DNA of 55,409 bases from an uncultured Bacilli bacterium (GCA_947624085.1 CANQIK010000003.1:1-55409), one strand, 5' to 3'. Shown: positions 5,999-55,342, numbered from the stretch's first letter. Made by a program: numbers and translations. Notes: a model not told the origin generated them from the sequence alone.

Positions 5999-7222
5999 CT
6001 AATTGTTTCCTAAAATGTACGGATTATTGACAGAGCCATCACCGCTCACTACTGTTGATGTTTTATTAATCGTAATTACGGGTCTTATGCCTGCAACCGA
6101 GGTTCCATTTGTGCTTGTTAAACTACCATCAGCGCCAAGGGAAAAGGCAAAATATGAGCCATCTCCATCAAGGAAAGCCGATGTCATGGTAAAGGCACTA
6201 GAACTCATGTGGTCGTTATATAGAAAGTAAGCTTCATTAGCTTGACCATAAACTCCACCGGCATAGACTATTTCATCAGCCGTTAATAAAGCGACTTTAC
6301 CACTATAAGTATCGCCTAAACAATAAAACGTTGGAATATTATCTTTGGTAAGTCTTTGATTTGCTAAATACCCATTATCAGTTCTCGTTAAATCATTACA
6401 ATATTTTTGCGTTGCAACAATATCACTATACTCGCCTAAAGATGTTAATAACCAATTATTTAAAGAATTAATAATACTACTATGGGCAATATCAAAGTTA
6501 GTATCATAATAACGATTAAGAAGCTCTAAATTATCATTTAAAACTAGTTTAATTGAGCCATCGCCATTAATACGAACTATTCTAAATAATAAATCATTAA
6601 TTAAAACATAATTATTAGTTACATTACCTCTAAAGTAATAAGTTGTGCCATTATCATCAGTTGCTTCAATTAAGCCCTCATCACTAGTAGCTACATCAAT
6701 ACCTACTTTTGTTAAAGTTGCTTTTTTAATTTCATTATTATTAATGATAACATCGGCAAAACTTGAAGATTCTAAAGTTTCCATATTAACATCAATATCT
6801 AAACTAAATTCATCATCAACTTCAGAGGCAAAACTAATATCAAATGTTTCTACTTCCCCCGCACCAATTAAGATATAACTCGATACAATAGCATTATAAG
6901 GAAGTAACTCACTTTCAATATTTATATCATTGTTATTGGTAATCTTATAAGTTGCTTTAGGCACATTTTGCACATTTTCAAATTCAATATAATAATAAGC
7001 GTCTTCATTAGAATCATTTATGATAGATATTTGGGTTTCTTTATGTCCTTTAACCGTAACATGATTACCCGTACTAAAATTAATTGATAAGTTACCAGAT
7101 ACTTTAATATAAGGCTCTTTGCCTAGAAGATGACCATAGCTAATGTAAAAACCACCAAGCACTACACTGCCGATTAAGAGAAATAATATAATTAAAAGGG
7201 CACTTTTAAATCTTGTTCTCAT
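5999..7222 (-). CDS. Secreted/surface protein: TasA-like N-terminal signal/module plus divergent 'RPV' cargo domain
   Basis: 407 aa. The N-terminus MRTRFKSALLIILFLLIGSVVLGGFYISYGHLLG has the same signal style as the 30562-33618 cluster. The C-terminal half aligns motif by motif with the cargo family: TYYFRGNVTNNYV..LFRIVRINGDG, LLTADEIVYAGG, AFTMTSA, AGIRPVITINKTSTVVSGDGSVNNPYIL. Confidence 0.7.
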   Translation of the reverse strand: MRTRFKSALLIILFLLIGSVVLGGFYISYGHLLGKEPYIKVSGNLSINFSTGNHVTVKGHKETQISIINDSNEDAYYYIEFENVQNVPKATYKITNNNDINIESELLPYNAIVSSYILIGAGEVETFDISFASEVDDEFSLDIDVNMETLESSSFADVIINNNEIKKATLTKVGIDVATSDEGLIEATDDNGTTYYFRGNVTNNYVLINDLLFRIVRINGDGSIKLVLNDNLELLNRYYDTNFDIAHSSIINSLNNWLLTSLGEYSDIVATQKYCNDLTRTDNGYLANQRLTKDNIPTFYCLGDTYSGKVALLTADEIVYAGGVYGQANEAYFLYNDHMSSSAFTMTSAFLDGDGSYFAFSLGADGSLTSTNGTSVAGIRPVITINKTSTVVSGDGSVNNPYILGNN

Positions 7223-13276: not shown

Positions 13277-14455
13277 TTATATGCCAATAAAGGCAAGATA
13301 ACATAAGAATAGGATAAAGATAGTCAAAATTATGCCCCCATTGATATTATCACGTTTATTAGCTACCTCCGGAATACCTACAGCCATAGCAGCTAAATAC
13401 CCACCGATAAGTCCACCGATATGGCAAGAAGCGTCAATACCTGGTAAAAAGCTTAAGATAAGGTTAACCACTATAACGGGTATTAATCTTGTTAATAAAC
13501 TATCACGGAAATATAATCTAAATTTCATGCCAAAATATACTAAAGCTCCTAAAGTACCAAAAATAGCCCCTGAAGCTCCAACCGACATACTATTAGGATT
13601 AAGTCCGGCACTTAATAAACCACCACATATAGCACTTATAAGATAGATGAAGATAAATCTTTTAGTTCCATATCTTGCTTCTGTTTGGGGACCAATGATT
13701 AAAAGGGAATACATATTCATAATAATATGAGTCCAACCGCCATGTAAAAAAGCATAAGCTACTAAACGCCAAGACTGAGCTAAACTAGCTAAAATATTAC
13801 TAAAGCCATTTCTTAAATATAACCCAGAATTAGCACCAAGAACGCCAAGCTTTTCAATAGCTCCAACGCCATTAAAAGTACCTTTTAGCATAACCAGCTC
13901 AACACCAAACATAATCAGGCATAAACTTATAATAAAATAAGTAAACCAACATTTTTTACCACTAAAAATACGTTTATATTTGGCATTTTCCTTTGCAGTA
14001 CGATTATTAAGATCATTTGTAACATTATATATAAGCTCTAACCCATCTTCGGCTGTATAGATATTATCTTTTAAATTAGGGAAAATCTCTAAAAGATCTT
14101 TATTATTTTCAACATCTTTTAAATCATTTACAGCCAGATTATCAACATTTTTAAGGCCATTTGCCTTTATATCAGGTTCTTCATTTAAATTAATATTTAA
14201 AGCATTAATGGAAAAAGATAAAGTTTTTCTTTTAATTTGTCTTAATATTCCCTTAATGCGAAATTGATCAAATCTAAATTGTTCATCATTAAAAATACGA
14301 TTACTATTAATTCTAATTACTCGATAAGGACCATCTATTTTTTCAAGCCATATTTCATCTCTTACACCTTGAACAAAGATTGGTGAATAATTTTCTTTTG
14401 TAACAAAATAATGAACTAAACTCATAAGTATTTGGTCTTCTTTGCGTAAATTCAT
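13277..14455 (-). CDS. Rhomboid family intramembrane serine protease (GluP/YqgP-like)
   Basis: 392 aa with a cytoplasmic N-domain plus a polytopic core carrying HGGWTHIIMNM, the catalytic GASGAIFG and HIGGLIGG. Confidence 0.85.
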   Translation of the reverse strand: MNLRKEDQILMSLVHYFVTKENYSPIFVQGVRDEIWLEKIDGPYRVIRINSNRIFNDEQFRFDQFRIKGILRQIKRKTLSFSINALNINLNEEPDIKANGLKNVDNLAVNDLKDVENNKDLLEIFPNLKDNIYTAEDGLELIYNVTNDLNNRTAKENAKYKRIFSGKKCWFTYFIISLCLIMFGVELVMLKGTFNGVGAIEKLGVLGANSGLYLRNGFSNILASLAQSWRLVAYAFLHGGWTHIIMNMYSLLIIGPQTEARYGTKRFIFIYLISAICGGLLSAGLNPNSMSVGASGAIFGTLGALVYFGMKFRLYFRDSLLTRLIPVIVVNLILSFLPGIDASCHIGGLIGGYLAAMAVGIPEVANKRDNINGGIILTIFILFLCYLAFIGI

Positions 14456-16499: not shown

Positions 16500-18185
16500 T
16501 CAGCTTACTTTAAATGGCTTGGATTGACTACCGTCAATACCGTCGCCACCACTTAAGGTTACACTAGAGTTTAGATAAAAGACCGGGCGCACACCATACG
16601 CGTCGTCAACGAAGTCGCCGCCGTCCACGTACCCACTGTAGCCGACATTGAACGCATAGTTAGTGCTGACTGAAACGCGCGAAATAGTCCATTCGTATAC
16701 ACCATTAAATAACCAATTATTTTCCCTGTTTTGGTTATTTTCAATTTCATCATCTTTACTATCATCATACATATAAAGCCTATATTCCCAGCTTTTTGGT
16801 TCACTTGCAAAGCCATAATCTGATGGATACATTAATCCTATTTCAGCTTGCACTTTTGTTTGTGCTCCTCCTGACTCATTCCATTCCTCATCATATACTT
16901 CTTTGGCTTTTGGTAATTCATCATTAGGATTTCCTCCAACATTCCATTGTACCTTTTCTATTTTACTTTCCCAGGTAGTACCCAATTTATTAAGAAAGCT
17001 TTTGTCATTGCTATTTAATGCTTTATATAATGAACTACTTCCCCATACATTAGCATTGTCGCTATCACAATCATCGTTCCAATGGAAACCATCAACACTA
17101 TCTTCTGCCTTTACCCTTTTTAAGCTTTTATAGTCATCCTCAAAATATTCAGTTCCATCTGCACTATCTTTGCCTAAATCATCATGAGTTGCATACTCTG
17201 ATTTTATTATTTTAAATAAATTTTGGGTTGTTGTACTATCATCTTCATTAACAACTTCGACTGGAACTATACCTATTATACGATACAAGTTACCATCATT
17301 GCAGGTATCAGATTTTCCATTATTATAGTTTTCACTGCCCGGGCCAAAACAAATAAAATTATTTGGATTACAGCCAGAATAACGATAGCCGTTATCTTCT
17401 GCGCCATTTTGTAATGTTTTATCATGCTTTAGTAATCCACCTATGCCCATAGGGCACAAATTAGATTTAGTTGTTGATATAGCCGTGTCATTCACAAGCT
17501 TTTCAGCGAACTCCTCAGCAGTTAACTTTTCGGAAAGGTTAGTTAGACCCCCCCCCGGTTTACACTTACTTGTCTTAAAATATATTTTGCCACTGAAAGT
17601 TTTGTTTAAATTTCCGTTTTGGTCTACATTTTCTAATTTATAGTGGCGGTATTTGAACGTCCAATTTTGTGTTGTAGCACTTGCGCCTTTTGTAGCAGTA
17701 ATGGAAGCATCCATTATTTTTTTGTCTGTGGATGTTTTCATGTTTTGTAAATCTAAAGATTGTTCACCTTTAGGATACAAACTGCCATTTGCAGAAGCAA
17801 CTATAGTGAGTTCATTAGCATGCGTTATGCCAAAATCACTGTCAGCATGGAACCACACTTCATAGTCACAAGTAACGCTATCATAATCTGAGTTGTTTTT
17901 TAAACTAACAGTACCTGCGCTAGAATTACTTTCAATATAATTATTTTCAGTTTCATTTGTTAATTGTAAAGGGTCAATATAAAATGTAAGGTTATTATCA
18001 GCATTTAAATTAAATGCTACATTAAGACCATTATTAAAGTTTATGTTTTCATTTATACCATTTAAAGTATTAGAAAAATAAGCAAAAGATACACTCATAA
18101 CGACAATAGCAACGAGTACTATACTTGAGGCTATCATAACAACAACTTTTTTACTATTCACTGACTTTTCTTCCGTTCTTTCCAT
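16500..18185 (-). CDS. Surface protein: TasA/camelysin-like signal and module fused through a poly-Gly (G9 tract) junction to the 'GVRPVFYL' cargo domain
   Basis: 561 aa with a strong SD AAGGAGGAAG. The N-terminus ...IVVMSVSFAYFSNTLNG resembles SipW-type signals (camelysin GGGTFAYFSD). Residues 1-209 align with the stand-alone 211-aa protein at 31925-32560 (TCDYEVWFH/TCNYKIYYQ, TQNWTFKYRHYKLENVDQ/SQTWSLHYRFYNLDVDQ, SGKIYFKTSKC/SGKIIIEGQNC). Residues ~214-561 are the cargo domain (GYRYSGCNPNNFICFGPGSENYNNG, NLYRIIGIVPVE, IKSEYAT, GLMYPSDYGFAS, ENNWLF..EWTI, GVRPVFYLNSSVTLSGGDG..KPFKV). Confidence 0.85.
   Translation of the reverse strand: MERTEEKSVNSKKVVVMIASSIVLVAIVVMSVSFAYFSNTLNGINENINFNNGLNVAFNLNADNNLTFYIDPLQLTNETENNYIESNSSAGTVSLKNNSDYDSVTCDYEVWFHADSDFGITHANELTIVASANGSLYPKGEQSLDLQNMKTSTDKKIMDASITATKGASATTQNWTFKYRHYKLENVDQNGNLNKTFSGKIYFKTSKCKPGGGLTNLSEKLTAEEFAEKLVNDTAISTTKSNLCPMGIGGLLKHDKTLQNGAEDNGYRYSGCNPNNFICFGPGSENYNNGKSDTCNDGNLYRIIGIVPVEVVNEDDSTTTQNLFKIIKSEYATHDDLGKDSADGTEYFEDDYKSLKRVKAEDSVDGFHWNDDCDSDNANVWGSSSLYKALNSNDKSFLNKLGTTWESKIEKVQWNVGGNPNDELPKAKEVYDEEWNESGGAQTKVQAEIGLMYPSDYGFASEPKSWEYRLYMYDDSKDDEIENNQNRENNWLFNGVYEWTISRVSVSTNYAFNVGYSGYVDGGDFVDDAYGVRPVFYLNSSVTLSGGDGIDGSQSKPFKVS
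16581..16682 (-). other. GC-rich, adenine-poor hypervariable patch inside cargo domain
   Basis: These are the 34 codons between EWTI and PVFYL: TCG CGC GTT TCA GTC AGC ACT AAC TAT GCG TTC AAT GTC GGC TAC AGT GGG TAC GTG GAC GGC GGC GAC TTC GTT GAC GAC GCG TAT GGT GTG CGC CCG GTC. My hand count gives 61/102 G+C and 16/102 A on the sense strand. Confidence 0.8.
17548..17556 (-). repeat. Homopolymeric G9 (C9 on plus strand) tract in coding sequence
   Basis: The plus strand reads agaCCCCCCCCCgg. The sense strand reads AAA CCG GGG GGG GGT CTA ACT AAC (KPGGGLTN). This is the longest G/C run I saw in the window; the others are 5 nt or shorter. Confidence 0.95.
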
Positions 18186-27140: not shown

Positions 27141-27707
27141 CTACTTACAATAAGTGTTTGTTTCACTATATTCACTATTAGTCCAAGTACGTGAACTACT
27201 GTTATAACTACTAGCAGGATCAATTAATTTCCTATTTGCTATTCCATCAGCAGTATTATCCATTATAATACACGCATATACCCGATTATATTCCATATAT
27301 ATTCTTATTTTTAAATTGTTTACTATAACATCATCAACCGGATTGGTCATTACGGCACAGCGCACAATCCCATCGGAATAATTGCTTTTTTGTTTAACAC
27401 ATTTAATAGAGCCCAAAGTACTTTTATTTTCATATTCGCTTGTTTCTAAGTCATTTGACTCGATTAAATCTCCTACCGTTTTAGTTATTTTTTTAGTAGC
27501 AACGCCACTGGCATTTAAAAATAATTCTTTATTATTTCCGCCATATTCTTGAGCAGCGGCAATCATTAAATCAAGTTTAGTTTCAAACATATTTTTATTA
27601 ATTTTATTTTTAATCGCCGCAATACTTGAAGAACCAATAAGGATAATAACTGTCAAGATAACTAAAACTGCTAAAAGCTCTACTAAAGTAAATCCCTTTT
27701 TATTCAT
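27141..27707 (-). CDS. Type IV pilin / pseudopilin-like protein (orphan)
   Basis: 188 aa. MNKKG|FTLVELLAVLVILTVIILIG has a prepilin leader, Glu+5 and a hydrophobic helix. Two Cys pairs (IKCVKQ...VRCAV and YACII...NTYCK) include a C-terminal disulfide-loop-like arrangement typical of pilins. Confidence 0.8.
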   Translation of the reverse strand: MNKKGFTLVELLAVLVILTVIILIGSSSIAAIKNKINKNMFETKLDLMIAAAQEYGGNNKELFLNASGVATKKITKTVGDLIESNDLETSEYENKSTLGSIKCVKQKSNYSDGIVRCAVMTNPVDDVIVNNLKIRIYMEYNRVYACIIMDNTADGIANRKLIDPASSYNSSSRTWTNSEYSETNTYCK

Positions 27708-28709: not shown

Positions 28710-29990
28710 TTAATTAACTTTGTAAGGTTTTGCGTAACTACCATCGCCACCACTTAAGATTACACTAGAGTTTAGATAGAATACAGGACGAACACCATGC
28801 ACGGTGCCAACGTGGCCGCTATTCAGATACCCAGTGTCGCCGACAAAGAACGCATTGATAGTGCCACCGCGCAAAATAGTCCATTCATAAATGGCATTAA
28901 ATAACCAATTATTTTCGCGGTTTTGGTTATTTTCTTCTTGTTCATTATCTTTAACATCATTATATTTATAAAGTCTATATTCCCAACTTTTTGGCTCACT
29001 AGCAAAGCCGTAGTCTGAGGGATACATTAGCCCTATTTTTGCTGGCACTTTTGTTTTTGCGCCATATGTGCTGCTCCATTCCTCATTATATGACTCTTTG
29101 GCTTTTGGAAGTTGATTTTTAGTACTTCCTCCAACATTCCACTGAACAGTTTCTATCTTATTTGCCCAGTTATTTAGATTATACAAATAACCTGATGAAC
29201 TGCCATTTAAAGTACTAAATAATGAACTACTACCCCATGTATTGTTATAGTCTTTATAGTCTTTGTTCCAATAGAAAGTCTCAACTCTTGTTTCAGCTTT
29301 AACTCTTTTTAAATCTTTATATGTAGAATTAAATGACTGCGTACCATCAGCTGTACTTTTTCCTAAATCACTTGCCGTTGCATATTCTGATTTTATCACT
29401 TTAATTAATTTTGTTTTTGTTCCATTTGATAATTCTACTGGGACATACCCTATTATGCGATATAAATTTCCATCAGGACACGCTCCTCCATTATTATAGG
29501 TTTCACTATTAGGTCCAAAACATATATAATTATTTGGATCATCTCCTGAATATCTATATCCCTGGTCATTAGCGCCATTTTCTAATAAGGAATTATGATA
29601 AATTAGTTCTCCTTCTCCACTTGGTCCTAATAATTTTTCAAAGAATTTTTCTTGTTCTGACTTAATATCAAAATATAATGTACAATTAGTGTTTTCATCG
29701 GCTTTTAATAAAACACTATTACTACTTGGGTTCCAATCGATTATATCTTCGGGAATTGTAGTACCATTACAGCTACTTTTTGCTACATTTAATACATAAT
29801 TACCGCTAGACCATACAGTTGAACTCCCTTGTGTATAACCACTGCCATTTTGATACATATAAGCTATACCACTATCATCTATTGTAAAATTTAATGGTTC
29901 ATTTTCCTTTTTATTTGTTAATAATATTGTGGAAATTACTACTATAACTATTACCAATAATACACTTATTATTCCTACTTTCTTTTTCAT
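28710..29990 (-). CDS. TM-anchored surface protein carrying the 'GVRPVFYL' cargo domain
   Basis: 426 aa with an N-terminal uncleaved-type anchor MKKKVGIISVLLVIVIVVISTILL and a ~110-aa unique region. The cargo domain is highly similar to 16500-18185 at both protein and DNA level (GYRYSGDDPNNYICFGPNSETYNNG, NLYRIIGYVPVE, IKSEYAT, GLMYPSDYGFASEPKSWEYRLY, ENNWLF..EWTI, GVRPVFYLNSSVILSGGDG..KPYKVN). Confidence 0.85.
   Translation of the reverse strand: MKKKVGIISVLLVIVIVVISTILLTNKKENEPLNFTIDDSGIAYMYQNGSGYTQGSSTVWSSGNYVLNVAKSSCNGTTIPEDIIDWNPSSNSVLLKADENTNCTLYFDIKSEQEKFFEKLLGPSGEGELIYHNSLLENGANDQGYRYSGDDPNNYICFGPNSETYNNGGACPDGNLYRIIGYVPVELSNGTKTKLIKVIKSEYATASDLGKSTADGTQSFNSTYKDLKRVKAETRVETFYWNKDYKDYNNTWGSSSLFSTLNGSSSGYLYNLNNWANKIETVQWNVGGSTKNQLPKAKESYNEEWSSTYGAKTKVPAKIGLMYPSDYGFASEPKSWEYRLYKYNDVKDNEQEENNQNRENNWLFNAIYEWTILRGGTINAFFVGDTGYLNSGHVGTVHGVRPVFYLNSSVILSGGDGSYAKPYKVN
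28782..28874 (-). other. GC-rich, adenine-poor hypervariable patch inside cargo domain
   Basis: These are the 31 codons between EWTI and FYL: TTG CGC GGT GGC ACT ATC AAT GCG TTC TTT GTC GGC GAC ACT GGG TAT CTG AAT AGC GGC CAC GTT GGC ACC GTG CAT GGT GTT CGT CCT GTA. My hand count gives 52/93 G+C and 14/93 A. Confidence 0.8.
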
Positions 29991-30070: not shown

Positions 30071-30499
30071 TTATTTTGTTTTTTCTTTTTTGTTTGCCTT
30101 TTTTAATTCATTTTTAATTTCTCTTAAAAGCAAGATTTCTTCACTTACTTTTTCTTCTTCTTTAGCCTCTTCTTCTTGTTTTTCTTTCTTAAATATTTTT
30201 TCTTGTTCCTTTTTTAAGAAATCAGATAGTTTATTAAATAGTTTAATCATGAAGAAAATACATAAAGCAATAATTAAGAAATTTAGAATAGCTTGAATAA
30301 AAGCTCCATAATGTATTCCTTTAAAAGCTAAGTCAGAAAAATCAATATCAGATTTACCTACTACAATACCTATTATAGGCGTAATAACATCATTAACTAA
30401 AGATGTTACAATTTCTCCAAAAGCACCACCTATAATAACACCGACTGCCATATCAAGAACATTACCTCTTGAAATAAATTTTTTAAATTCTTTAAACAT
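30071..30499 (-). CDS. mscL: Large-conductance mechanosensitive channel
   Basis: [44 protein letters not shown] is canonical MscL. GGAGG lies 5 nt upstream of this ATG. The track's longer start is a TTG that lies within the SD. Confidence 0.9.
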
Positions 30500-30520
30500 A
30501 TCTACCTCCAATTGAAAACT

Positions 30521-30561: not shown

Positions 30562-31188
30562 CTAACTATAAAGAACTACTGTTGCGCTAAAAGTTTTATC
30601 CATTGATTCAGTACTTGCATCTTTACTAACCCATACATATAAATCATAATTTTTAGTTGCTTTATTTGTTATACTAGCAGTACCAATATTGTACACAGTA
30701 GTTGCTGACTTTTGATATTTTTTATTTAGATAATTTTGAATATCAGTTGATAATGATTTTGAATTACTACTAAGTGTTTTAACATTATTTTTATTTAACG
30801 TTTGACTTGTTGTAGTCTCTACTAAAAGGAATCTTAATTTATCTATAGGGAAACTACTAGAATTTAACGGAACTATACCAATACTAAGTGATTTAGTCTC
30901 AGTACAATCATTTTTGACACTAAATGAATATTTAAAATTTGATTGAGTATTACTACTACTATTAAAGAACTGGTCATCGGTAATGGGCACAGCATAATCA
31001 TGTGGCAAAGTAAATGCTTTTGAATCACTAATTGTTAAGCCTACACAGCTTGGGATTGATGTTGTCGTTTGCATTTCAACTGTTTTACTGGCACTAATTG
31101 TATAATAAGCATAAGAAGAGGATATAAATGCACACATAATTATAAGTGTTAAAGAAAGAATAAGAATTATCAAATTCTTTTGTTTCAT
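30562..31188 (-). CDS. Secreted ~205-aa protein, TasA/camelysin-like N-terminal signal (cluster member 4)
   Basis: 208 aa. N-terminus MKQKNLIILILSLTLIIMCAFISSSYAYYTISASK. It is a close paralogue of 31275-31892 (shared VEMQ/NATTS.PSC.GL.I, YAVPITDDQF.NS, FKYSF.VKNDCT..KSL.IG.VP.NS, YDLY.W, K.F..TVVLY). Confidence 0.75.
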   Translation of the reverse strand: MKQKNLIILILSLTLIIMCAFISSSYAYYTISASKTVEMQTTTSIPSCVGLTISDSKAFTLPHDYAVPITDDQFFNSSSNTQSNFKYSFSVKNDCTETKSLSIGIVPLNSSSFPIDKLRFLLVETTTSQTLNKNNVKTLSSNSKSLSTDIQNYLNKKYQKSATTVYNIGTASITNKATKNYDLYVWVSKDASTESMDKTFSATVVLYS

Positions 31189-31226
31189 AAATTACCTTCT
31201 TTCATATCTTTTATTACTTTAAGTGT

Positions 31227-31235
31227 AGTATAACA
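31227..31235 (-). promoter_or_regulatory. Extended -10 element (TGTTATACT) directly after a terminator
   Basis: It is part of a 21-nt string CACTTTTTTTATGTTATACTA that is repeated identically at 32584-32604. Confidence 0.4.
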
Positions 31236-31236
31236 T

Positions 31237-31257
31237 AAAAAAAGTGGCAATGCCACT
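31237..31257 (-). terminator. Rho-independent terminator after 31275-31892
   Basis: The minus RNA reads AGUGGC-AUU-GCCACU followed by UUUUUUU. Confidence 0.6.
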
Positions 31258-31274
31258 ATTTCATAAAATATTTT

Positions 31275-31892
31275 TTAGTTATAAAGGACCACAGTATATT
31301 TAAATTCTTTATTCATAGTACTATCAGTAGCAGTAGAGTCAAGCCACATATATAAATCGTAGGTTTTAGAACTGCTAGCAGAAATTGTGGCAGTACCAAC
31401 GTTATATGTTGTTGTAGCAGTAATGCTGTATGTCTTTTTCAAATAATCTTGCAAATCCTTATTCAAAGTCACGCTAGAAGGAAGGTTTTTTACGTTTTCT
31501 TTTTTAAGACTAGAATTACTCTCCACTAATATATATTTTATTTTAGATATAAGTGAAGTATCACTATTTGTTGGAACTACTCCAATTTTTAATGATTTTT
31601 GCGTAGTGCAATCATTTTTAACAGTAAAAGAATATTTAAATTTATTTTGTGTTGTAGTGTTACTATTTAAAAATTGGTCATCGGTAATGGGCACAGCATA
31701 ATCTTTTTCTAAAGTAAAGGTTTTATTACTTGTTATATGTAGTCCTATACAACTTGGTGTACTAGTTGTTGCATTCATTTCAACCGTTTTATTTGTATTT
31801 ATTACATAATAACCATATGAAGCAGAAATACACATAGATGCAACTAGTAAAACAGAAATTATTGTAAGTGCAATTGTTCTCTTTTTATTCAT
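31275..31892 (-). CDS. Secreted ~205-aa protein, TasA/camelysin-like N-terminal signal (cluster member 3)
   Basis: I chose the start at MNKKRTIAL (SD AGGGGA 8 nt upstream). N-terminus ...LLVASMCISASYGYYVINTNK. It is a paralogue of 30562-31188 and lies 26 nt after the previous gene, so it is probably co-transcribed. Confidence 0.75.
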   Translation of the reverse strand: MNKKRTIALTIISVLLVASMCISASYGYYVINTNKTVEMNATTSTPSCIGLHITSNKTFTLEKDYAVPITDDQFLNSNTTTQNKFKYSFTVKNDCTTQKSLKIGVVPTNSDTSLISKIKYILVESNSSLKKENVKNLPSSVTLNKDLQDYLKKTYSITATTTYNVGTATISASSSKTYDLYMWLDSTATDSTMNKEFKYTVVLYN

Positions 31893-31924
31893 AAACATTT
31901 CCCCTTGTTTAAAGTATATTAGTT

Positions 31925-32560
31925 TTAACGGGCATAGCAGTTTTGACCTTCAATTATAATTTTACCCGAAGGATTTTTCCCTATAACATCTGATTGATCA
32001 ACATCTAAGTTATAAAAACGATAATGCAAACTCCAAGTTTGGGAAGCAGTACCAGTAGTTTGATTAGTCGTTATATTTCCCGAATAAAGCTCTTTTTTAC
32101 TAGATACATTAGCAATTGATGTAGTTGTAAAATTGGTGCTTGTGTTACTTATTTCTCCACTTATGCCTAATTCAGTTTTGCCAGAGCTAGCACTTGAAGC
32201 CGTATATTGGGTTGTTGGTTGATAATAAATCTTATAGTTGCAAGTTACGGCTTTTTTATATTGGCTTGGGTTAACTGTAACATTGATCGTTACATTATGA
32301 GTTTCGTCAATATATTTTGACATATTATTATTAGCCGTAGACACAGTTAAATTATCAAGTGTGACATTTAAACTAAAATTAGTATTTCCTGTTATATTAA
32401 ATATATTTTGAGGATTTAAGACATTACCATTTAAAACGTCTGTGTTACTAATATTAGCTTTATATCCAATGTAACCATATGAAAATATGGCTGCTAAACC
32501 TACTAAAAAGACAACTGTTAGTGATAAACTATAAATTAAATTCTTATTTTTCTTATCCAT
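31925..32560 (-). CDS. Secreted 211-aa protein homologous to the N-terminal module of 16500-18185 (cluster member 2)
   Basis: N-terminus ...VVFLVGLAAIFSYGYIGYKANISN. It aligns along its whole length with residues 1-209 of the 561-aa protein and ends (...SGKIIIEGQNCYAR*) where that protein has its G9 tract. Confidence 0.75.
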   Translation of the reverse strand: MDKKNKNLIYSLSLTVVFLVGLAAIFSYGYIGYKANISNTDVLNGNVLNPQNIFNITGNTNFSLNVTLDNLTVSTANNNMSKYIDETHNVTINVTVNPSQYKKAVTCNYKIYYQPTTQYTASSASSGKTELGISGEISNTSTNFTTTSIANVSSKKELYSGNITTNQTTGTASQTWSLHYRFYNLDVDQSDVIGKNPSGKIIIEGQNCYAR

Positions 32561-32583
32561 TTCAACTTTCCTATTCTAAAATT

Positions 32584-32592
32584 AGTATAACA
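32584..32592 (-). promoter_or_regulatory. Extended -10 element (TGTTATACT) after the 32635-33618 gene
   Basis: The same 21-nt string CACTTTTTTTATGTTATACTA occurs at 31227-31247. Confidence 0.4.
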
Positions 32593-32595
32593 TAA

Positions 32596-32620
32596 AAAAA
32601 GTGACTTTACACCACTTTTT
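32596..32620 (-). terminator. Weak AT-rich terminator-like hairpin after 32635-33618
   Basis: The minus RNA reads AAAAAGUG-9 nt-CACUUUUU followed by further U residues. Only 3 G:C pairs. Confidence 0.3.
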
Positions 32621-32634
32621 ATACTACTTTACTT

Positions 32635-33618
32635 TTATTTAGCTTCAATATTTTTAGCAGCGATGGTAATGCTTCCCTTAAAGCTTTTTTCAGTATTAAC
32701 ATTTTGATTATGGTTTAAATTAACCATTCTAATGCCCGCGATATAATAATTAGTGCTATTCTTATCTTTAGTAGTAGCAATTGTTCCATTATCTAAAACC
32801 GTTACTTTATCTTTAGGAGCTTTCTCAGTAATATCTACTCTTTTTATTAAATTATAGCATTTATTATTCTCATAAATATTAGCTACCCACATACCATTTG
32901 ACGTACAACTACTTTCACTTTTGATACTACTATCAATAGTGCCATCATACTTTACACAAACTCCTTTAGACGAAGTTCCTGCTCCTCCTATACATTCATC
33001 TTCGGTAAGAGCGTCATTTTTAGCATATAAATCAAGCACTAATTCAGGAACTTGTTCTTTAACCCATACTGTATTAGCTTGCGTCATACAAGAAATTTCA
33101 CTATTATCTAAACCATTTAAATTAGCAAGCTCAGAATTTTCTAAATCATAACAAGCATAAGTCTCATCTTCATAACTTATTCCCCAAGCTTTATTACTTC
33201 CTACACAGCTAGCAAATGTATTATAAGTATTTTCTTTTTGAGCATTATTTTTTAAATAACATTTTCCAGAGGTATACTCAAAATTATTTTCTTCAACATT
33301 TAAGGATATTTCATATTCATGCGTAACTTTTTCTTTACCCGTAGTAAGGCTAACACTAATTTCCGTGCTATCAAATGGATCAGTCATGTTAACTCCAAAA
33401 TTATCTTGAGTAACATTTAAAGTTAAATTATCGCCACTATCAAATTGAAAAAGATCACCGGCATCGCCAACATGACCATTAATATTAGCACTAGCTTCAT
33501 TTTCAACAACACTACCTAAATAAGCAAAAGTCGCTCCCACGACAACTATAACCATAGTAGCTATAGCAATAACAATTAACAAAATAACATTATTATCTTT
33601 TTCATTTTTGGTATCCAT
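32635..33618 (-). CDS. Secreted 327-aa protein, TasA/camelysin-like signal/module with Cys-rich insertion (cluster member 1)
   Basis: N-terminus ...MVIVVVGATFAYLGSVVENEASANINGH; compare camelysin GGGTFAYFSD. The C-terminal strand NQNVNTEKSFKGSITIAAK resembles the family ending. A central ~150 aa carry 10 Cys in C-x(n)-C pairs. SD GGAGGA. Confidence 0.75.
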   Translation of the reverse strand: MDTKNEKDNNVILLIVIAIATMVIVVVGATFAYLGSVVENEASANINGHVGDAGDLFQFDSGDNLTLNVTQDNFGVNMTDPFDSTEISVSLTTGKEKVTHEYEISLNVEENNFEYTSGKCYLKNNAQKENTYNTFASCVGSNKAWGISYEDETYACYDLENSELANLNGLDNSEISCMTQANTVWVKEQVPELVLDLYAKNDALTEDECIGGAGTSSKGVCVKYDGTIDSSIKSESSCTSNGMWVANIYENNKCYNLIKRVDITEKAPKDKVTVLDNGTIATTKDKNSTNYYIAGIRMVNLNHNQNVNTEKSFKGSITIAAKNIEAK

Positions 33619-33652: not shown

Positions 33653-33681
33653 ATAATATAATTTTTTAAGATTTTAGTCAA
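33653..33681 (-). promoter_or_regulatory. Sigma-A type promoter of the four-gene cluster
   Basis: The minus strand reads TTGACT (33681-33676), a 17-nt spacer, then TATTAT (33658-33653). It lies ~35 nt upstream of the ATG at 33618. Confidence 0.55.
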
Positions 33682-43726: not shown

Positions 43727-44344
43727 TTAAGATTTTTTGACATAAACAAATTCACAAACACCTGGTCCCTTAAATGATGCTTGACCGTTTTCATTTATAG
43801 TTGGTCTTTCTGTAGTAGTGTTTAAACTTAAACAGTCAGATAATTCCGGGCTAAACGTATAACCAGTAGTGATAGAAGTAGACGTTTTAGCTTGAAATGT
43901 TTTGCCATTATCATTGCTAATGTAAACTTTAGAAGATAAATCATCTGTAGATGTTATTTTATCAAAATAGGCTGAGCAGCTACCTATTTGTCCATAAGAT
44001 AATGTAAGAACACTGTTATCAACAGCTGCAAAATAGCTACCATTATCACAGCTACTTTTTTCAGGGTTAAATATATATCCAGTAGGGACGGCTTGATTTT
44101 TAGATTCAGCATAACTATTTACAGGAGTACTGCCTTGTAATTCTTGTAAATAAATTCTTACGCGAATATCGGAAGTTTCAATATTGGCAGTACCGGTAAT
44201 AACTAAATTAGTATTTGTAGTTGTGTAAAAAGCATATGAGAAATATGCAACAGCAGAAAGTAATAGCACAACTAAAAGAACCATACCAAGTGTGATATAA
44301 CTTTTTTTGTTAGGCACTACCTTATTACGAAACCATTCCTTCAT
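43727..44344 (-). CDS. Secreted ~205-aa protein with TasA/camelysin-like N-terminal signal (solitary copy)
   Basis: 205 aa. N-terminus ...VVLLLSAVAYFSYAFYTTTNTNLVITGTANIE has the same signal style and size as the 30562-32560 proteins. It has its own TATAAT promoter and is flanked by terminators. Confidence 0.7.
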   Translation of the reverse strand: MKEWFRNKVVPNKKSYITLGMVLLVVLLLSAVAYFSYAFYTTTNTNLVITGTANIETSDIRVRIYLQELQGSTPVNSYAESKNQAVPTGYIFNPEKSSCDNGSYFAAVDNSVLTLSYGQIGSCSAYFDKITSTDDLSSKVYISNDNGKTFQAKTSTSITTGYTFSPELSDCLSLNTTTERPTINENGQASFKGPGVCEFVYVKKS

Positions 44345-52774: not shown

Positions 52775-54865
52775 ATGTATAATAAAAGTAATAAAAATTC
52801 CCGCTTAATTAACATTTTAGTTGGTGTTATAGCATTCTTAATTATTGTCTTTTTAATCGTCTTTTTAGTTAATAGATCAAATGGTAATAAGACTGCTAGC
52901 AATGAACAACAATTTAGTGATAATTTAAGCACTTTACATCAAACAGCTAAAGAATTCTTTGCGGGTCAACTTCCTGAAGATGTTGGTGGTTCACTTCAAA
53001 CTAGCTTAAATGAGTTAATTGAAATGGGTGCCATTGATGAATTAAAATATGGCAACATAACTTGTGATGGTGAAGAAAGTTATATATCAATAACTAAAAC
53101 ATCAGAAGATGAATATCGAGTTAAATCTAACCTAGTGTGTGGTGATAAATCAGATAACACAATTGAAAAAATTAAATCCTCTACTACAGTAAAAGATGAA
53201 GACGGTAATACGATTGTTGACGAAGATAAAGATAAAGTTGATTTAGAGGTTGAAAAAAATCCTACTAACAATTCAGATAATTCAAATAGTAATGCCTCAA
53301 CAACTGGTGGCAGTGGTAATAGCACTGTATATTGTAAAGATTTTAATTGTACAGTTGAAGAAATACCTACAACTTGTACCGTTACTTATGAATATGAATA
53401 TGTAAAAAGAATTGTATCTTGTCCTAATGGCTATAATATAAGTGGTTCTACCTGTGTAATGGAATCATCTAATGCTATAGCTCCTACTCCTGTCTATTCT
53501 GATCCTTCAACCGTTATTGAAAGTGCCAAACTAAATCCAGGCGAATCTTATAAAGTTTATGTCGACCCAATTCGTGATGTAACCGATGGTCATTACTATT
53601 GTAAAACCGGTACATTGCAAGGAACCAAGTGTATAATAAATGCTAATAAGCAAGTTAACTATCAAACCAAGTGTCCTACCGGTTATAACAAAGTAGGAAA
53701 TTACTGTTATAAATATGCTAATAAAACTGGCGGTTCTTCAACCTCATATTGTCCAGCAGGTTATACTGATGATGGTACAAAATGTTATATAAGAACAGCT
53801 TTAAATACTAATACTACAACTTCTTGTCCATCTGGATATACCCAAAGTGGAAATTATTGTTTTAAATACGCTGATAAAATAACAAATACTACAACTTCTT
53901 GTCCTGCAGGAACTAGTCCATCTGGTAATAAATGTGTTAAGACAATTAGCGCTATTAAATCTTATACTGCATGGGGTAATCCTGTAAGAACTTATAGTTC
54001 AAAAACTAAAGAATCTGTATATACTTATGAACTTGAAAAGAAAGTAGAAAAAGGATGTACTACGATTGGCAAATCAACAACATGTAACTATTCAATTTAC
54101 CAAAGAAAACCAATTTATACATGTTCACAAGGTACATTATCAGGAACTAAGTGTTTAGTATATTCTGATCCTATTACTACAAGCACTACACCTACTTGTC
54201 CTTCTGGATATATAGATAATGGTTCTAATTGTTATGTTAGTCAACCAGTATCTACTTCATCTTCTTCTACTTGTCCATCAGGATATACGCAAAGTGGTAA
54301 TTACTGTTATAAATATGCTGATCGAATTTATTCTACAACTCCAAGTACTTGTCCTTCTGGATATACCGATGGTGGTTCTACATGCTATCAAAGAGTAAAT
54401 GCTACAACGGAAAAGAATCTATATTGTGAATCTGGATACACAGATAATGGCTATGTTTGTAAAAAGACTGTTAATGCTACTTATGTAGGTGGAAGCACAT
54501 ATTATACTTGTCCAACTGGTTATACATCTTCTGGCTCTGGCAAAAACATGCAATGTTACAAATATGTAAAATCTAGTGATAAATATTACTGTGAAAATGC
54601 TAATGCCGAATTAAAAGGCACATTATGTTACGTTAAGAAAGAATCTGAATTCTTATATAACAAGTGTCAAGATGGTTATACATTAGGAGCAGATAATATG
54701 TGTCATAGTTCATCTATATCAACTACTAACCCTACTTGGTCTGATGTAGATTATATGTTCAGTACGGAAACTTATGTACCTGGTTACCAAAGAACTGGTA
54801 GAGGTAAGTTCCATCAAGTATGTGTTAGAACTGAAAATACTAACAAACCAGTAATTTATAAATAA
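52775..54865 (+). CDS. TM-anchored surface protein with pilin-head-like region and ~14 Cys-x(9-10)-Cys 'CPxGYxxxGxxC' hairpin repeats
   Basis: 696 aa. SD AAAGGAGG, 24 nt after the previous stop. N-terminal anchor INILVGVIAFLIIVFLIVFLV. Repeats include CPNGYNISGSTC, CPTGYNKVGNYC, CPAGYTDDGTKC, CPSGYTQSGNYC (x2), CPSGYIDNGSNC, CPSGYTDGGSTC, CESGYTDNGYVC and CQDGYTLGADNMC. Confidence 0.8.
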   Translation: MYNKSNKNSRLINILVGVIAFLIIVFLIVFLVNRSNGNKTASNEQQFSDNLSTLHQTAKEFFAGQLPEDVGGSLQTSLNELIEMGAIDELKYGNITCDGEESYISITKTSEDEYRVKSNLVCGDKSDNTIEKIKSSTTVKDEDGNTIVDEDKDKVDLEVEKNPTNNSDNSNSNASTTGGSGNSTVYCKDFNCTVEEIPTTCTVTYEYEYVKRIVSCPNGYNISGSTCVMESSNAIAPTPVYSDPSTVIESAKLNPGESYKVYVDPIRDVTDGHYYCKTGTLQGTKCIINANKQVNYQTKCPTGYNKVGNYCYKYANKTGGSSTSYCPAGYTDDGTKCYIRTALNTNTTTSCPSGYTQSGNYCFKYADKITNTTTSCPAGTSPSGNKCVKTISAIKSYTAWGNPVRTYSSKTKESVYTYELEKKVEKGCTTIGKSTTCNYSIYQRKPIYTCSQGTLSGTKCLVYSDPITTSTTPTCPSGYIDNGSNCYVSQPVSTSSSSTCPSGYTQSGNYCYKYADRIYSTTPSTCPSGYTDGGSTCYQRVNATTEKNLYCESGYTDNGYVCKKTVNATYVGGSTYYTCPTGYTSSGSGKNMQCYKYVKSSDKYYCENANAELKGTLCYVKKESEFLYNKCQDGYTLGADNMCHSSSISTTNPTWSDVDYMFSTETYVPGYQRTGRGKFHQVCVRTENTNKPVIYK
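53417..54712 (+). repeat. Coding tandem/dispersed repeats (Cys hairpin units)
   Basis: DNA-level repeats are visible. For example, tgtccatctggatatacccaaagtggaaattattgttttaaatacgctgat at ~53826 matches tgtccatcaggatatacgcaaagtggtaattactgttataaatatgctgat at ~54271. Confidence 0.75.
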
Positions 54866-54991: not shown

Positions 54992-55342
54992 TTATAAACA
55001 CGCTATATGGTTACAAATCTCAGGAGCTGTACCAGGTACTGGTTTGTATTCAACTTTTACATTATTTATACTTTGCTCAGCAGTCTTGCCTGTACCATCA
55101 GTTATCTTTACAGTGAAAGTATGTTCATAGCAATGAGTTAGATTTGATATTGTTATAACATTACTGTTAGTAGATATATTGACATTGCCATTGTGAGAAC
55201 ATGCGCTAACAGGTTCGCCACAATCATCAAGACAAGAATTTGTTACAGAGTAAGTGTAATTTCCATCTCCTCCTGTTGCCGTAACAGTTAATTTTGCAGT
55301 GTATGGAGTATTAGTATCAACATCAATATTCACTATTTTCAA
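54992..55342 (-). CDS. Cys-containing Ig-like (GGxGxYTYS-type) domain protein; start uncertain, frame stays open to the right window edge
   Basis: The 116-aa ORF begins at a TTG with no SD. It contains TAKLTVTATGGDGNYTYSVTN (an Ig/PKD/SprB-repeat-like motif) and 7 Cys. The same frame has no stop up to nt 55409, so it may be the 3' part of a longer gene. Confidence 0.35.
   Translation of the reverse strand: MKIVNIDVDTNTPYTAKLTVTATGGDGNYTYSVTNSCLDDCGEPVSACSHNGNVNISTNSNVITISNLTHCYEHTFTVKITDGTGKTAEQSINNVKVEYKPVPGTAPEICNHIACL

Follow-up and report, generated by a model that had tools for sequence, protein, structure and literature searches.

Four consecutive small genes at positions 30562-33618 of a contig from an uncultured Bacilli bacterium (GCA_947624085.1 CANQIK010000003.1:1-55409) encode proteins whose N-termini recall the fibre protein TasA and camelysin, and the question raised by this locus is whether such genes could build a surface fibre. 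The stretch analysed as a whole, hereafter the window, comprises 55,409 nt with a GC content of about 29%. The four open reading frames (ORFs) lie in a row on the minus strand: C (327 amino acids [aa]; 32635-33618; leader ...VVVGATFA/YLGS, the slash marking the predicted cleavage site here and below), A (211 aa; 31925-32560; ...LAAIFSYG/YIGY), B1 (31275-31898; ...CISASYG/YYVI) and B2 (208 aa; 30562-31188; ...FISSSYA/YYTI). The original prediction, made from sequence alone, had listed these same genes; the 205 aa it gave for B1 count from the second ATG, and the first ATG yields 207 aa. It had also called the last two genes tandem duplicates, in agreement with the 53% identity of B1 and B2 over 208 aa (E 6e-51).

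On the evidence set out below, we lean towards reading the four products as beta-sandwich proteins that are exported, belong to a divergent branch of the TasA superfamily (TasA/CalY/BsaA/AbpA) so far without annotation, and would form a donor-strand fibre.

Homology to the TasA superfamily

Most of the evidence concerns the B proteins. After its leader, B1 is predicted to form a beta-sandwich with two cysteines that are near-invariant in the family (C50 and C97), the motifs YAVPITD and FTVKNDC, and a C-terminal ...YDLYMWLD...MNKEFKYTVVL. In profile-profile comparisons with hhalign, a narrow B alignment of 7 sequences matched 170-240-aa proteins encoded beside sipW genes over the full length (98.9%, E 2.5e-17, 175 columns), and these SipW-adjacent proteins in turn matched TasA/CalY (96.8%, E 2.2e-10, 166 columns), the C-terminal DQN...QG hairpin included. 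A broader alignment, B-wide, compared directly with TasA, gave 44-83% and E 9e-6 to 2e-4, the match being confined to the first 75-85 columns, in a consistent register that sets the Cys50 strand against GTLDL, Y-P-x-x-D against NLKPGD, and FTVxNxC against FxxxNxGSL. Divergent families of the TasA superfamily have been joined at profile-profile probabilities of about 80-97% (PMC9245690; bioRxiv 10.1101/2024.12.30.630787), and by that usage B is, judged from its profiles, transitively homologous to the superfamily over the predicted mature domain.

A reciprocal hidden Markov model (HMM), built from SipW-adjacent proteins only and run against the 47 proteins of the window, matched B1 (E 6e-20), B2 (E 1e-18, residues 2-207), C (E 4e-8, residues 7-130 and 224-323) and two remote proteins, encoded at 16500-18185 (E 6e-7, residues 7-206) and 43727-44344 (E 9e-5, residues 12-156). 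Some relatives outside the window approach or reach the curated models: two family members exceed the PF12389 gathering score of 22.5 bits (P0116, 23.0 bits; L220:2876-3451, 25.8 bits; L numbers denote retrieved loci), and L193:461-1549 scores 21.6 bits over residues 25-140. With TIGR04088, for which the cut-off is 19 bits and the TasA control scored 38 bits, the C ortholog of L005 reached 18.0 bits in its leader (E 0.0024), the SipW-adjacent C-like protein L193:2394-3359 18.1 bits and P0023 15.3 bits.

C is predicted to consist of the N-terminal half of a beta-sandwich (residues ~9-142), an insertion of ~80 aa, and C-terminal strands (~220-323, ...NLNHNQNVNTEKSFKGSITI). The insertion had been credited with ten cysteines and contains 8, each of them kept in at least five of seven aligned C-family sequences. 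Compared by hhalign with SipW-adjacent proteins of 290-370 aa, C matched in the leader (94.9%) and in the C-terminal strands (96.6%, E 5e-10), and its profile homology appears confined to these two parts.

The extent of the family was apparent solely from an exhaustive search. Word-indexed homologue searches of 5.8 billion proteins returned 8 relatives with A and 6 and 18 proteins with other queries, none with a functional name, and a single-protein genome scan with A gave no match; the word-indexed results made the family look tiny, which was misleading. An exhaustive HMMER scan of 1.84 billion proteins with the B profile retrieved 7,465 clusters (counted at 50% identity) at E<=1e-3 and 2,848 at E<=1e-10. 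Matches always fell at the N-terminus of the target and covered the whole profile, and about half of the best 150 were proteins of 300-1,100 aa with C-terminal cargo, of types that include DUF285, DUF6273, ALK_LTK glycine-rich, LamG, Flg_new, BspA-type leucine-rich repeat (LRR) and HINT domains; because of this arrangement, the B-type module is, on the profile matches, a widespread N-terminal carrier. Ten B-family members were checked and none was named by any source. In the metagenome-assembled genome (MAG) Lapin-014 bin22, at least 7 B-like copies were found on 6 contigs (L168-L172, L176), so the module is multi-copy within single genomes.

Linkage to SipW

TasA is processed by SipW, a dedicated signal peptidase I of the archaeal/ER type, and an HMM of this peptidase, built from 60 sipW genes upstream of tasA in Bacillales, was run over 1.47 Mb of MAG loci including the window. 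It gave a single match, a SipW domain in L163 that lies beside P0026, a remote B relative. Using the L163 domain together with Bacillus SipW sequences as query, we then examined the loci of the best 80 of more than 521 matches; most came, as do the obg-anchored relatives, from gut MAGs labelled Bacilli or Tenericutes, and seven were Lapin MAGs. The peptidase in these loci was confirmed by TIGR02228 (104 bits, cut-off 52). With the B-wide HMM, 165 family ORFs were found in 65 of the 80 loci, 91 of them at E<=1e-10, all on the sipW strand and separated by a median gap of 636 bp. Since the HMM picked these ORFs without regard to the position of sipW, their adjacency to it is independent evidence.

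Two operons illustrate the arrangement. That of L193 encodes proteins of 362 aa (GATFAYFTATT), 321 aa (GATFAYFSATARS) and 185 aa, then SipW, then a protein of 584 aa, and that of L248 encodes seven paralogues of ~200 aa, SipW and a protein of 179 aa. Many SipW-type peptidases in L183-L262 and L163 have 486-691 aa, in which the catalytic domain forms the last ~180 residues behind an acidic, low-complexity or repetitive N-terminal extension with no Pfam match (L193 4080-5600, L189 4140-5600, L163 898-2973).

The leader and the structure models

Each of the four window proteins begins with a Lys-rich start and a hydrophobic stretch, followed by the motif [ST]-[FY]-[AG]-[FY]-x. The sequences quoted in the original prediction are all present (GATFAYLGS, AIFSYGYIGY, ISASYGYYVI and ISSSYAYYTI in the cluster; YFSYAFYTT at 43727-44344, VSFAYFSN at 16500-18185 and GGFYISYGHL at 5999-7222), and its assignment of these N-termini to the TasA/camelysin (SipW-type) leader class was borne out; read directly, the window motif fits the T-x-A/x-F core, without GGG. 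Among 1,434 ORFs of at least 100 aa from the window and related loci, the pentapeptide pattern occurred 110 times, and in 61 of these ORFs it stood straight after an uncharged N-terminal hydrophobic stretch. The leader motif is not due to chance.

The common leader consists of a Lys-rich n-region, ~16-18 hydrophobic residues, [ST]-[YF]-[AGS] and two bulky hydrophobic residues. In 66 short family representatives, with a median predicted leader length of 30 aa, position -3 was S or T in 63, position -2 was Y in 61 and position -1 was A, S or G in 64; +1 was mostly Y, F or L, +2 mostly aromatic, and G was the commonest residue at -5 and -7. The family leader fits the -3/-1 rule of signal peptidase I. 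The predicted mature start follows an alternating hydrophobic pattern (+2 aromatic, +4 V or I, +6 often V, I or L) and is the most conserved stretch outside the core.

AlphaFold2 (AF2) models of A (predicted local distance difference test [pLDDT] 78) and B1 (pLDDT 80, predicted template modelling [TM] score 0.69) share one layout, an N-terminal helix (residues 3-32 in A, 5-29 in B1), a segment of low confidence (28-45 and 28-49, respectively) and then a beta-sandwich. Direct reading of the C-termini (...ITIAAKNIEAK, ...IIIEGQNCYAR, ...YTVVLYN, ...ATVVLYS) revealed no sorting signal or hydrophobic tail. Sortase-assembled pilins were excluded, as no LPXTG motif is present.

The continuous helix in these models invites the main rival explanation, in which the leader is an uncleaved signal-anchor and the products are monomeric type II membrane proteins, the aromatic motif marking the membrane-water interface and the beta-sandwich acting as a stalk, spacer or binding domain that, in fused relatives, holds the cargo off the membrane. 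It would also suit the lack of a C-terminal anchor, sortase motif or assembly gene in the window, and the gene at 28710-29990, whose product shares a cargo domain with 16500-18185 and has a plain transmembrane start without the motif. The records of relatives bear the labels Mollicutes or Tenericutes, lineages of a kind in which proteins are commonly anchored by the N-terminus. Against it, the near-invariance of the small residues at -3 and -1 and the prevalence of G at -5 and -7 point to a peptidase site, not an interface; a hydrophobic stretch of 16-18 residues has the length of a signal peptide; there is tight linkage between the family and the gene of a dedicated signal peptidase; and in the homologous TasA/CalY proteins the equivalent site is cut. 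We hold an uncleaved anchor to be unlikely, if the most serious of the alternatives.

Foldseek comparison of the B model gave a sole hit at E<1e-3, the archaeal bundling pilin AbpA (7ueg_A; E 6.5e-4, TM 0.30-0.33), and the A model gave two, the neuropilin-1 MAM domain and FimG, a donor-strand pilin. Carbohydrate-binding modules (CBM), MAM domains and lectin-like jelly-rolls were also returned at comparable scores. Such hits would be in keeping with a reading in which the leader is cleaved and no polymerisation follows, the products being soluble or loosely wall-associated monomeric exoproteins with carbohydrate- or host-binding roles, duplicated under diversifying selection. The copy number and content of the gene slot beside obg do differ between close relatives, and BsaB, a TasA-family paralogue, is reported to form dimers only (PMC11580942). 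The predicted mature start argues the other way: it is the most conserved segment outside the core, it alternates in hydrophobicity, and it is unstructured in the monomer models. We regard monomeric exoproteins as quite unlikely.

Evidence that weighs against TasA membership

Several results count against placing the cluster in the TasA superfamily. Pfam PF12389 and NCBIfam TIGR04088, the two models with which the original prediction had proposed to check itself, matched none of the window proteins examined (C, A, B1 and B2 in the case of PF12389) even at E<=1, and only relatives came near or above the cut-offs. General Pfam and NCBIfam searches on the four proteins yielded nothing relevant and no TasA model. 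Profile searches of the PDB with three alignments (A1, A2 and A4) found neither TasA nor AbpA and gave only chance hits (multicystatin), with TasA present in the library. The structural support from Foldseek is weak, as the scores given above for AbpA show, and TasA itself (5of1, 8aur) was outside the top 50 for both the A and the B model; of the structural comparison that had been suggested, the archaeal pilin thus came out first for B and TasA did not appear.

Neither hhalign nor Foldseek linked gene A directly to TasA, the HMM of SipW-adjacent proteins missed it among the 47 window proteins, and on sequence comparison it appears tied to the family solely via C and 16500-18185. Between A and the SipW-adjacent proteins, hhalign aligned the leader alone (91%), and between A and B it reached the N-terminus alone (9-33%). 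Iterated HMMs seeded with A merged A, C and B and were not relied on, as a hydrophobic leader can drive profile drift; one such profile, in which C sequences were already included, matched C at residues 9-142 and 220-301.

The SipW HMM found no sipW in the window, as the original prediction had stated, or in the stretches of relatives that are syntenic with it, and no tapA-like or other assembly gene was found there either; a regular-expression search for signal-peptidase motifs in the obg loci found none. The three MAGs nearest to the window by Obg are absent from the best 80 of more than 521 SipW-anchored loci. Finally, the SipW-adjacent comparison set was itself chosen with a profile descended from B, and sipW adjacency alone is independent of that choice. 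Taken together, the predicted homology to the TasA family was upheld for B, through transitive profile-profile homology, family-level sipW linkage, the reciprocal HMM and AbpA as top structural match, and was not reached directly for A. None of the protease families in Pfam or NCBIfam was matched by the cluster proteins; the M73 'peptidase' label is now regarded as a likely misidentification (PMC11580942).

Cargo-fused relatives

In A, the leader is followed by a predicted beta-sandwich that carries the conserved C107 and C208 and has a ...YRFYNLDVDQSDVIGKNPSGKIIIEG hairpin at its C-terminal end. A matched the N-terminal ~205 aa of the protein encoded at 16500-18185 (blastp, E 7e-11, 23% identity) and, less strongly, C (E 1e-4), so that the earlier description of A as the stand-alone version of that module holds. 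The gene at 16500-18185 lies on the minus strand and encodes 561 aa, with the leader ...MSVSFA/YFSN, an A-type module (residues ~7-210) and a DUF6273-like cargo of ~330 aa, for which the Pfam match (E 0.004) is under the cut-off; TIGR04090 matched its leader only (E 0.033). A tract of nine G (C9 on the plus strand; 17548-17556) lies exactly at the junction of module and cargo, where it encodes PGGG, and is the sole homopolymer of its kind in this 29%-GC window. By computation, slippage of +1 or -1 at this tract would give products of 213 or 215 aa that correspond to the intact stand-alone module without cargo.

The ~300-aa DUF6273-like domain occurs on three different N-termini in the window, in copies that are 47-61% identical: a type IV pilin N_methyl start (249-1691), the A-type TasA-like module (16500-18185) and the plain transmembrane start of 28710-29990. 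The protein at 5999-7222 shares just its last ~45 residues with these cargo proteins. Another remote member of the family, at 43727-44344 on the minus strand, has 205 aa, 4 Cys and the leader ...AVAYFSYA/FYTT. Both the paralogue cluster and the remote cargo-fused versions put forward in the original prediction were recovered, by blastp and by the B-profile scan.

A shared cargo on a type IV pilin start raises the idea that the products of the cluster are pilin-like subunits of a non-canonical kind, put together by the lineage's type IV pilus/Com-like machinery, for which one can cite the N_methyl pilin genes at 249-1691 and 27141-27707 and the T2SSE ATPase and pilin gene near a B-like gene in L160, and which we consider very improbable, given that the four proteins have no G/F-T-L-x-E prepilin motif and no PF07963 match, that their conserved site stands after the hydrophobic stretch and not before it, and that the globular part, set off by a disordered linker, does not pack against the helix. 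True type IV pilins were excluded by the absence of the N_methyl motif, which PF07963 does detect in 249-1691 and 27141-27707.

Type IV pilin-like genes (PF07963) were found inside strings of housekeeping genes, as engB-pilin-der in the window (27141-27707) and ruvA-pilin-...-ruvB in L160 (12511-13224), and also in L001 (16058-16612); the T2SSE ATPase of L160 lies ~5 kb upstream of the B-like gene. In Clostridium perfringens, secretion of BsaC depends on the pilin PilA3, and efficient secretion of BsaA oligomers on some genes associated with type IV pili (PMC11580942), a dependence on which these pilin-like genes may bear.

Proposed assembly

In TasA the donor strand is formed by residues 28-38, directly after the SipW site (PMC9674648), and in BsaA the corresponding residues are disordered when a monomer is modelled and, in multimer models, inserted into the adjacent subunit; operons commonly contain several TasA/BsaA paralogues (PMC11580942). 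By analogy with TasA and BsaA, we propose export, cleavage and donor-strand assembly for the window proteins, and a fibre function of the cluster is a well-motivated hypothesis; we infer assembly by donor-strand exchange from the same analogy. The leader would be cut after the small -1 residue (S-Y-G/A), either by a SipW-type or by the general signal peptidase, whose gene would lie elsewhere in the genome. The N-terminus freed in this way, unstructured in the monomer, would serve as a donor strand and enter the sandwich of the following subunit, as happens in the fibres of TasA, BsaA and AbpA. All four products would then belong to surface filaments, of one kind or several and homo- or heteropolymeric, with B probably supplying the bulk and the Cys-rich C probably a specialised subunit (at the tip, as nucleator or for adhesion). 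Stabilising disulfides are probable for the C50-C97 pair of B, the C107-C208 pair of A and the 8 Cys of C. Elsewhere, as at 16500-18185, the same modules carry adhesin-like cargo, and the fibre could thus display exchangeable domains, with cargo-fused paralogues decorating it.

A bolder version of this model, which we offer as speculative, is that the TasA-like modules of these cell-wall-bearing, Mollicutes-like gut Bacilli are 'carrier pilins' of a donor-strand fibre independent of sortases and chaperones. A, B1 and B2 would form the shaft and C would cap or nucleate it; cargo-fused paralogues (16500-18185 and the DUF285, DUF6273, BspA-LRR, LamG and HINT fusions) would co-polymerise, and the G9 tract would switch between cargo-bearing and bare subunits. 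The presence of the same cargo on a type IV pilin would then mean that two unrelated fibre systems share one adhesin repertoire.

Genomic context

The cluster is flanked on one side by mscL (30071-30511) and on the other by a DUF192 gene and then obg; the DUF192 gene is divergent, as originally noted. By Obg (88-91% identity), the nearest relatives are the rabbit-gut Bacilli MAGs Lapin-004 bin3, Lapin-022 bin33 and Lapin-007 bin8, and the records of remoter relatives carry the labels Mollicutes or Tenericutes. The slot between DUF192/obg and mscL is syntenic in relatives and varies in gene content, from C-A-B-A-B in L001 (GCA_947586825.1) through C-B in L007 to C alone in L008-L010, and a single B-like gene follows obg directly in more than 15 further species.

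A promoter-like site (TTGACT-17-TATTAT; 33653-33681, minus strand) with 10 of 12 consensus matches precedes C, within the 129 bp that separate this gene from the divergent DUF192 gene; the consensus scan overall returned no more sites than shuffled sequence. A terminator-like hairpin followed by a T-run (AGTGGCATTGCCACT; 31243-31257, minus strand) lies between B1 and B2, in a scan that gave 3 sites against 0.9 expected. Because of this hairpin, the sequence suggests that C-A-B1 form one transcription unit and that B2 is transcribed separately or by read-through.

In L008 (12762-16562) and L009 (13330-17149), a three-gene signalling block stands between the C-like gene and a gene for an A-type module plus cargo. 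The block encodes an Hpt protein, a response regulator with an HD domain (PF13487) and a hybrid histidine kinase, and may regulate these surface genes. Elsewhere in the window, 13277-14455 encodes a rhomboid-family intramembrane protease (PF01694, E 4e-36) with an N-terminal extension of ~220 aa. The gene at 52775-54865 encodes 696 aa with an N-terminal transmembrane segment and many Cys-containing repeats (CPxGY...G..C[YF]), and beside it is a 116-aa ORF (54992-55342) with weak SprB/PKD/Big_9 matches; this pair probably represents another surface protein.

Significance

In the biofilms of Bacillus and Clostridium, and in several archaeal filaments, the protein scaffold consists of TasA-type donor-strand fibres, a family of which Pfam and NCBIfam models cover only a small part. 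What this locus brings to light is a very large branch, with more than 7,000 clusters, that has so far escaped annotation. In the 70 obg-anchored and 80 sipW-anchored loci retrieved, its members come mainly from uncultured gut Bacilli, in MAGs that carry the label 'Tenericutes', 'Mollicutes' or 'Bacilli', and none of these loci represents a cultured organism of the group; the cargo carried by about half of the best members is adhesin-like. Should the proteins polymerise, they would offer such organisms a main means of making surface filaments and of adhering to host or food particles, and the known range of donor-strand fibres would grow to include subunits that are modular and may be phase-variable. 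For thousands of 'hypothetical proteins', the B profile and the leader pattern provide an immediate handle for annotation.

Comparison with known systems

The window proteins resemble TasA/CalY (PF12389, TIGR04088; 'TasA family protein' in NCBIfam) in the layout of the cleavage region, T/S-aromatic-A followed by an aromatic pair (TWA/AF in TasA, TFA/YF in camelysin), in a subunit size of ~200 aa, in the predicted beta-sandwich fold, in homology via intermediates, and in a C-terminal hairpin with a D/N-Q/N loop (FEDNGTDQNMFQGDS... compared with ...NLDVDQSDVIGKNPSGK and ...DNSTENKKF...). TYAYF, as in CalY-like Bacillus plasmid proteins, also occurs in many B-family members. Unlike TasA, the cluster has no direct HMM match, no GGG before the site and no GTLD or NLKPGD, and B has instead a Cys-bearing strand and Y-x-x-P-I-T-D. 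It differs further in its conserved Cys pairs, in having no sipW or tapA nearby, and in the position of its genes among housekeeping genes.

BsaA and BsaB of Clostridium perfringens (sipW-bsaA-bsaB-bsaC; TIGR04090; PMC11580942) offer a parallel in that divergent TasA-family paralogues stand next to each other without LPXTG, the segment after the leader is disordered in monomer models, and type IV pilin genes occur in the same genome. The sole sequence link to this system is the leader-only TIGR04090 match of 16500-18185, and the window, unlike the bsa operon, has no sipW in cis. AbpA of Pyrobaculum calidifontis (PDB 7UEG; PMC9245690) is a very divergent member of the TasA superfamily that is processed by the general signal peptidase, with no dedicated one encoded nearby, from which it follows that sipW in cis is not obligatory. 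It differs from the window cluster in being archaeal, in lacking a Cys pair and in having no described cargo-fused versions, and its TM-score to the B model is low.

The closest demonstrable relatives are the sipW operons of gut Bacilli/'Tenericutes' (L193, L248). Unlike the window cluster, which occupies an obg-linked slot, these operons, themselves uncharacterised, encode SipW, often with a long acidic extension. They match B over its full length, share with C the GATFAY leader and the C-terminal strands, and contain the same arrays of paralogues.

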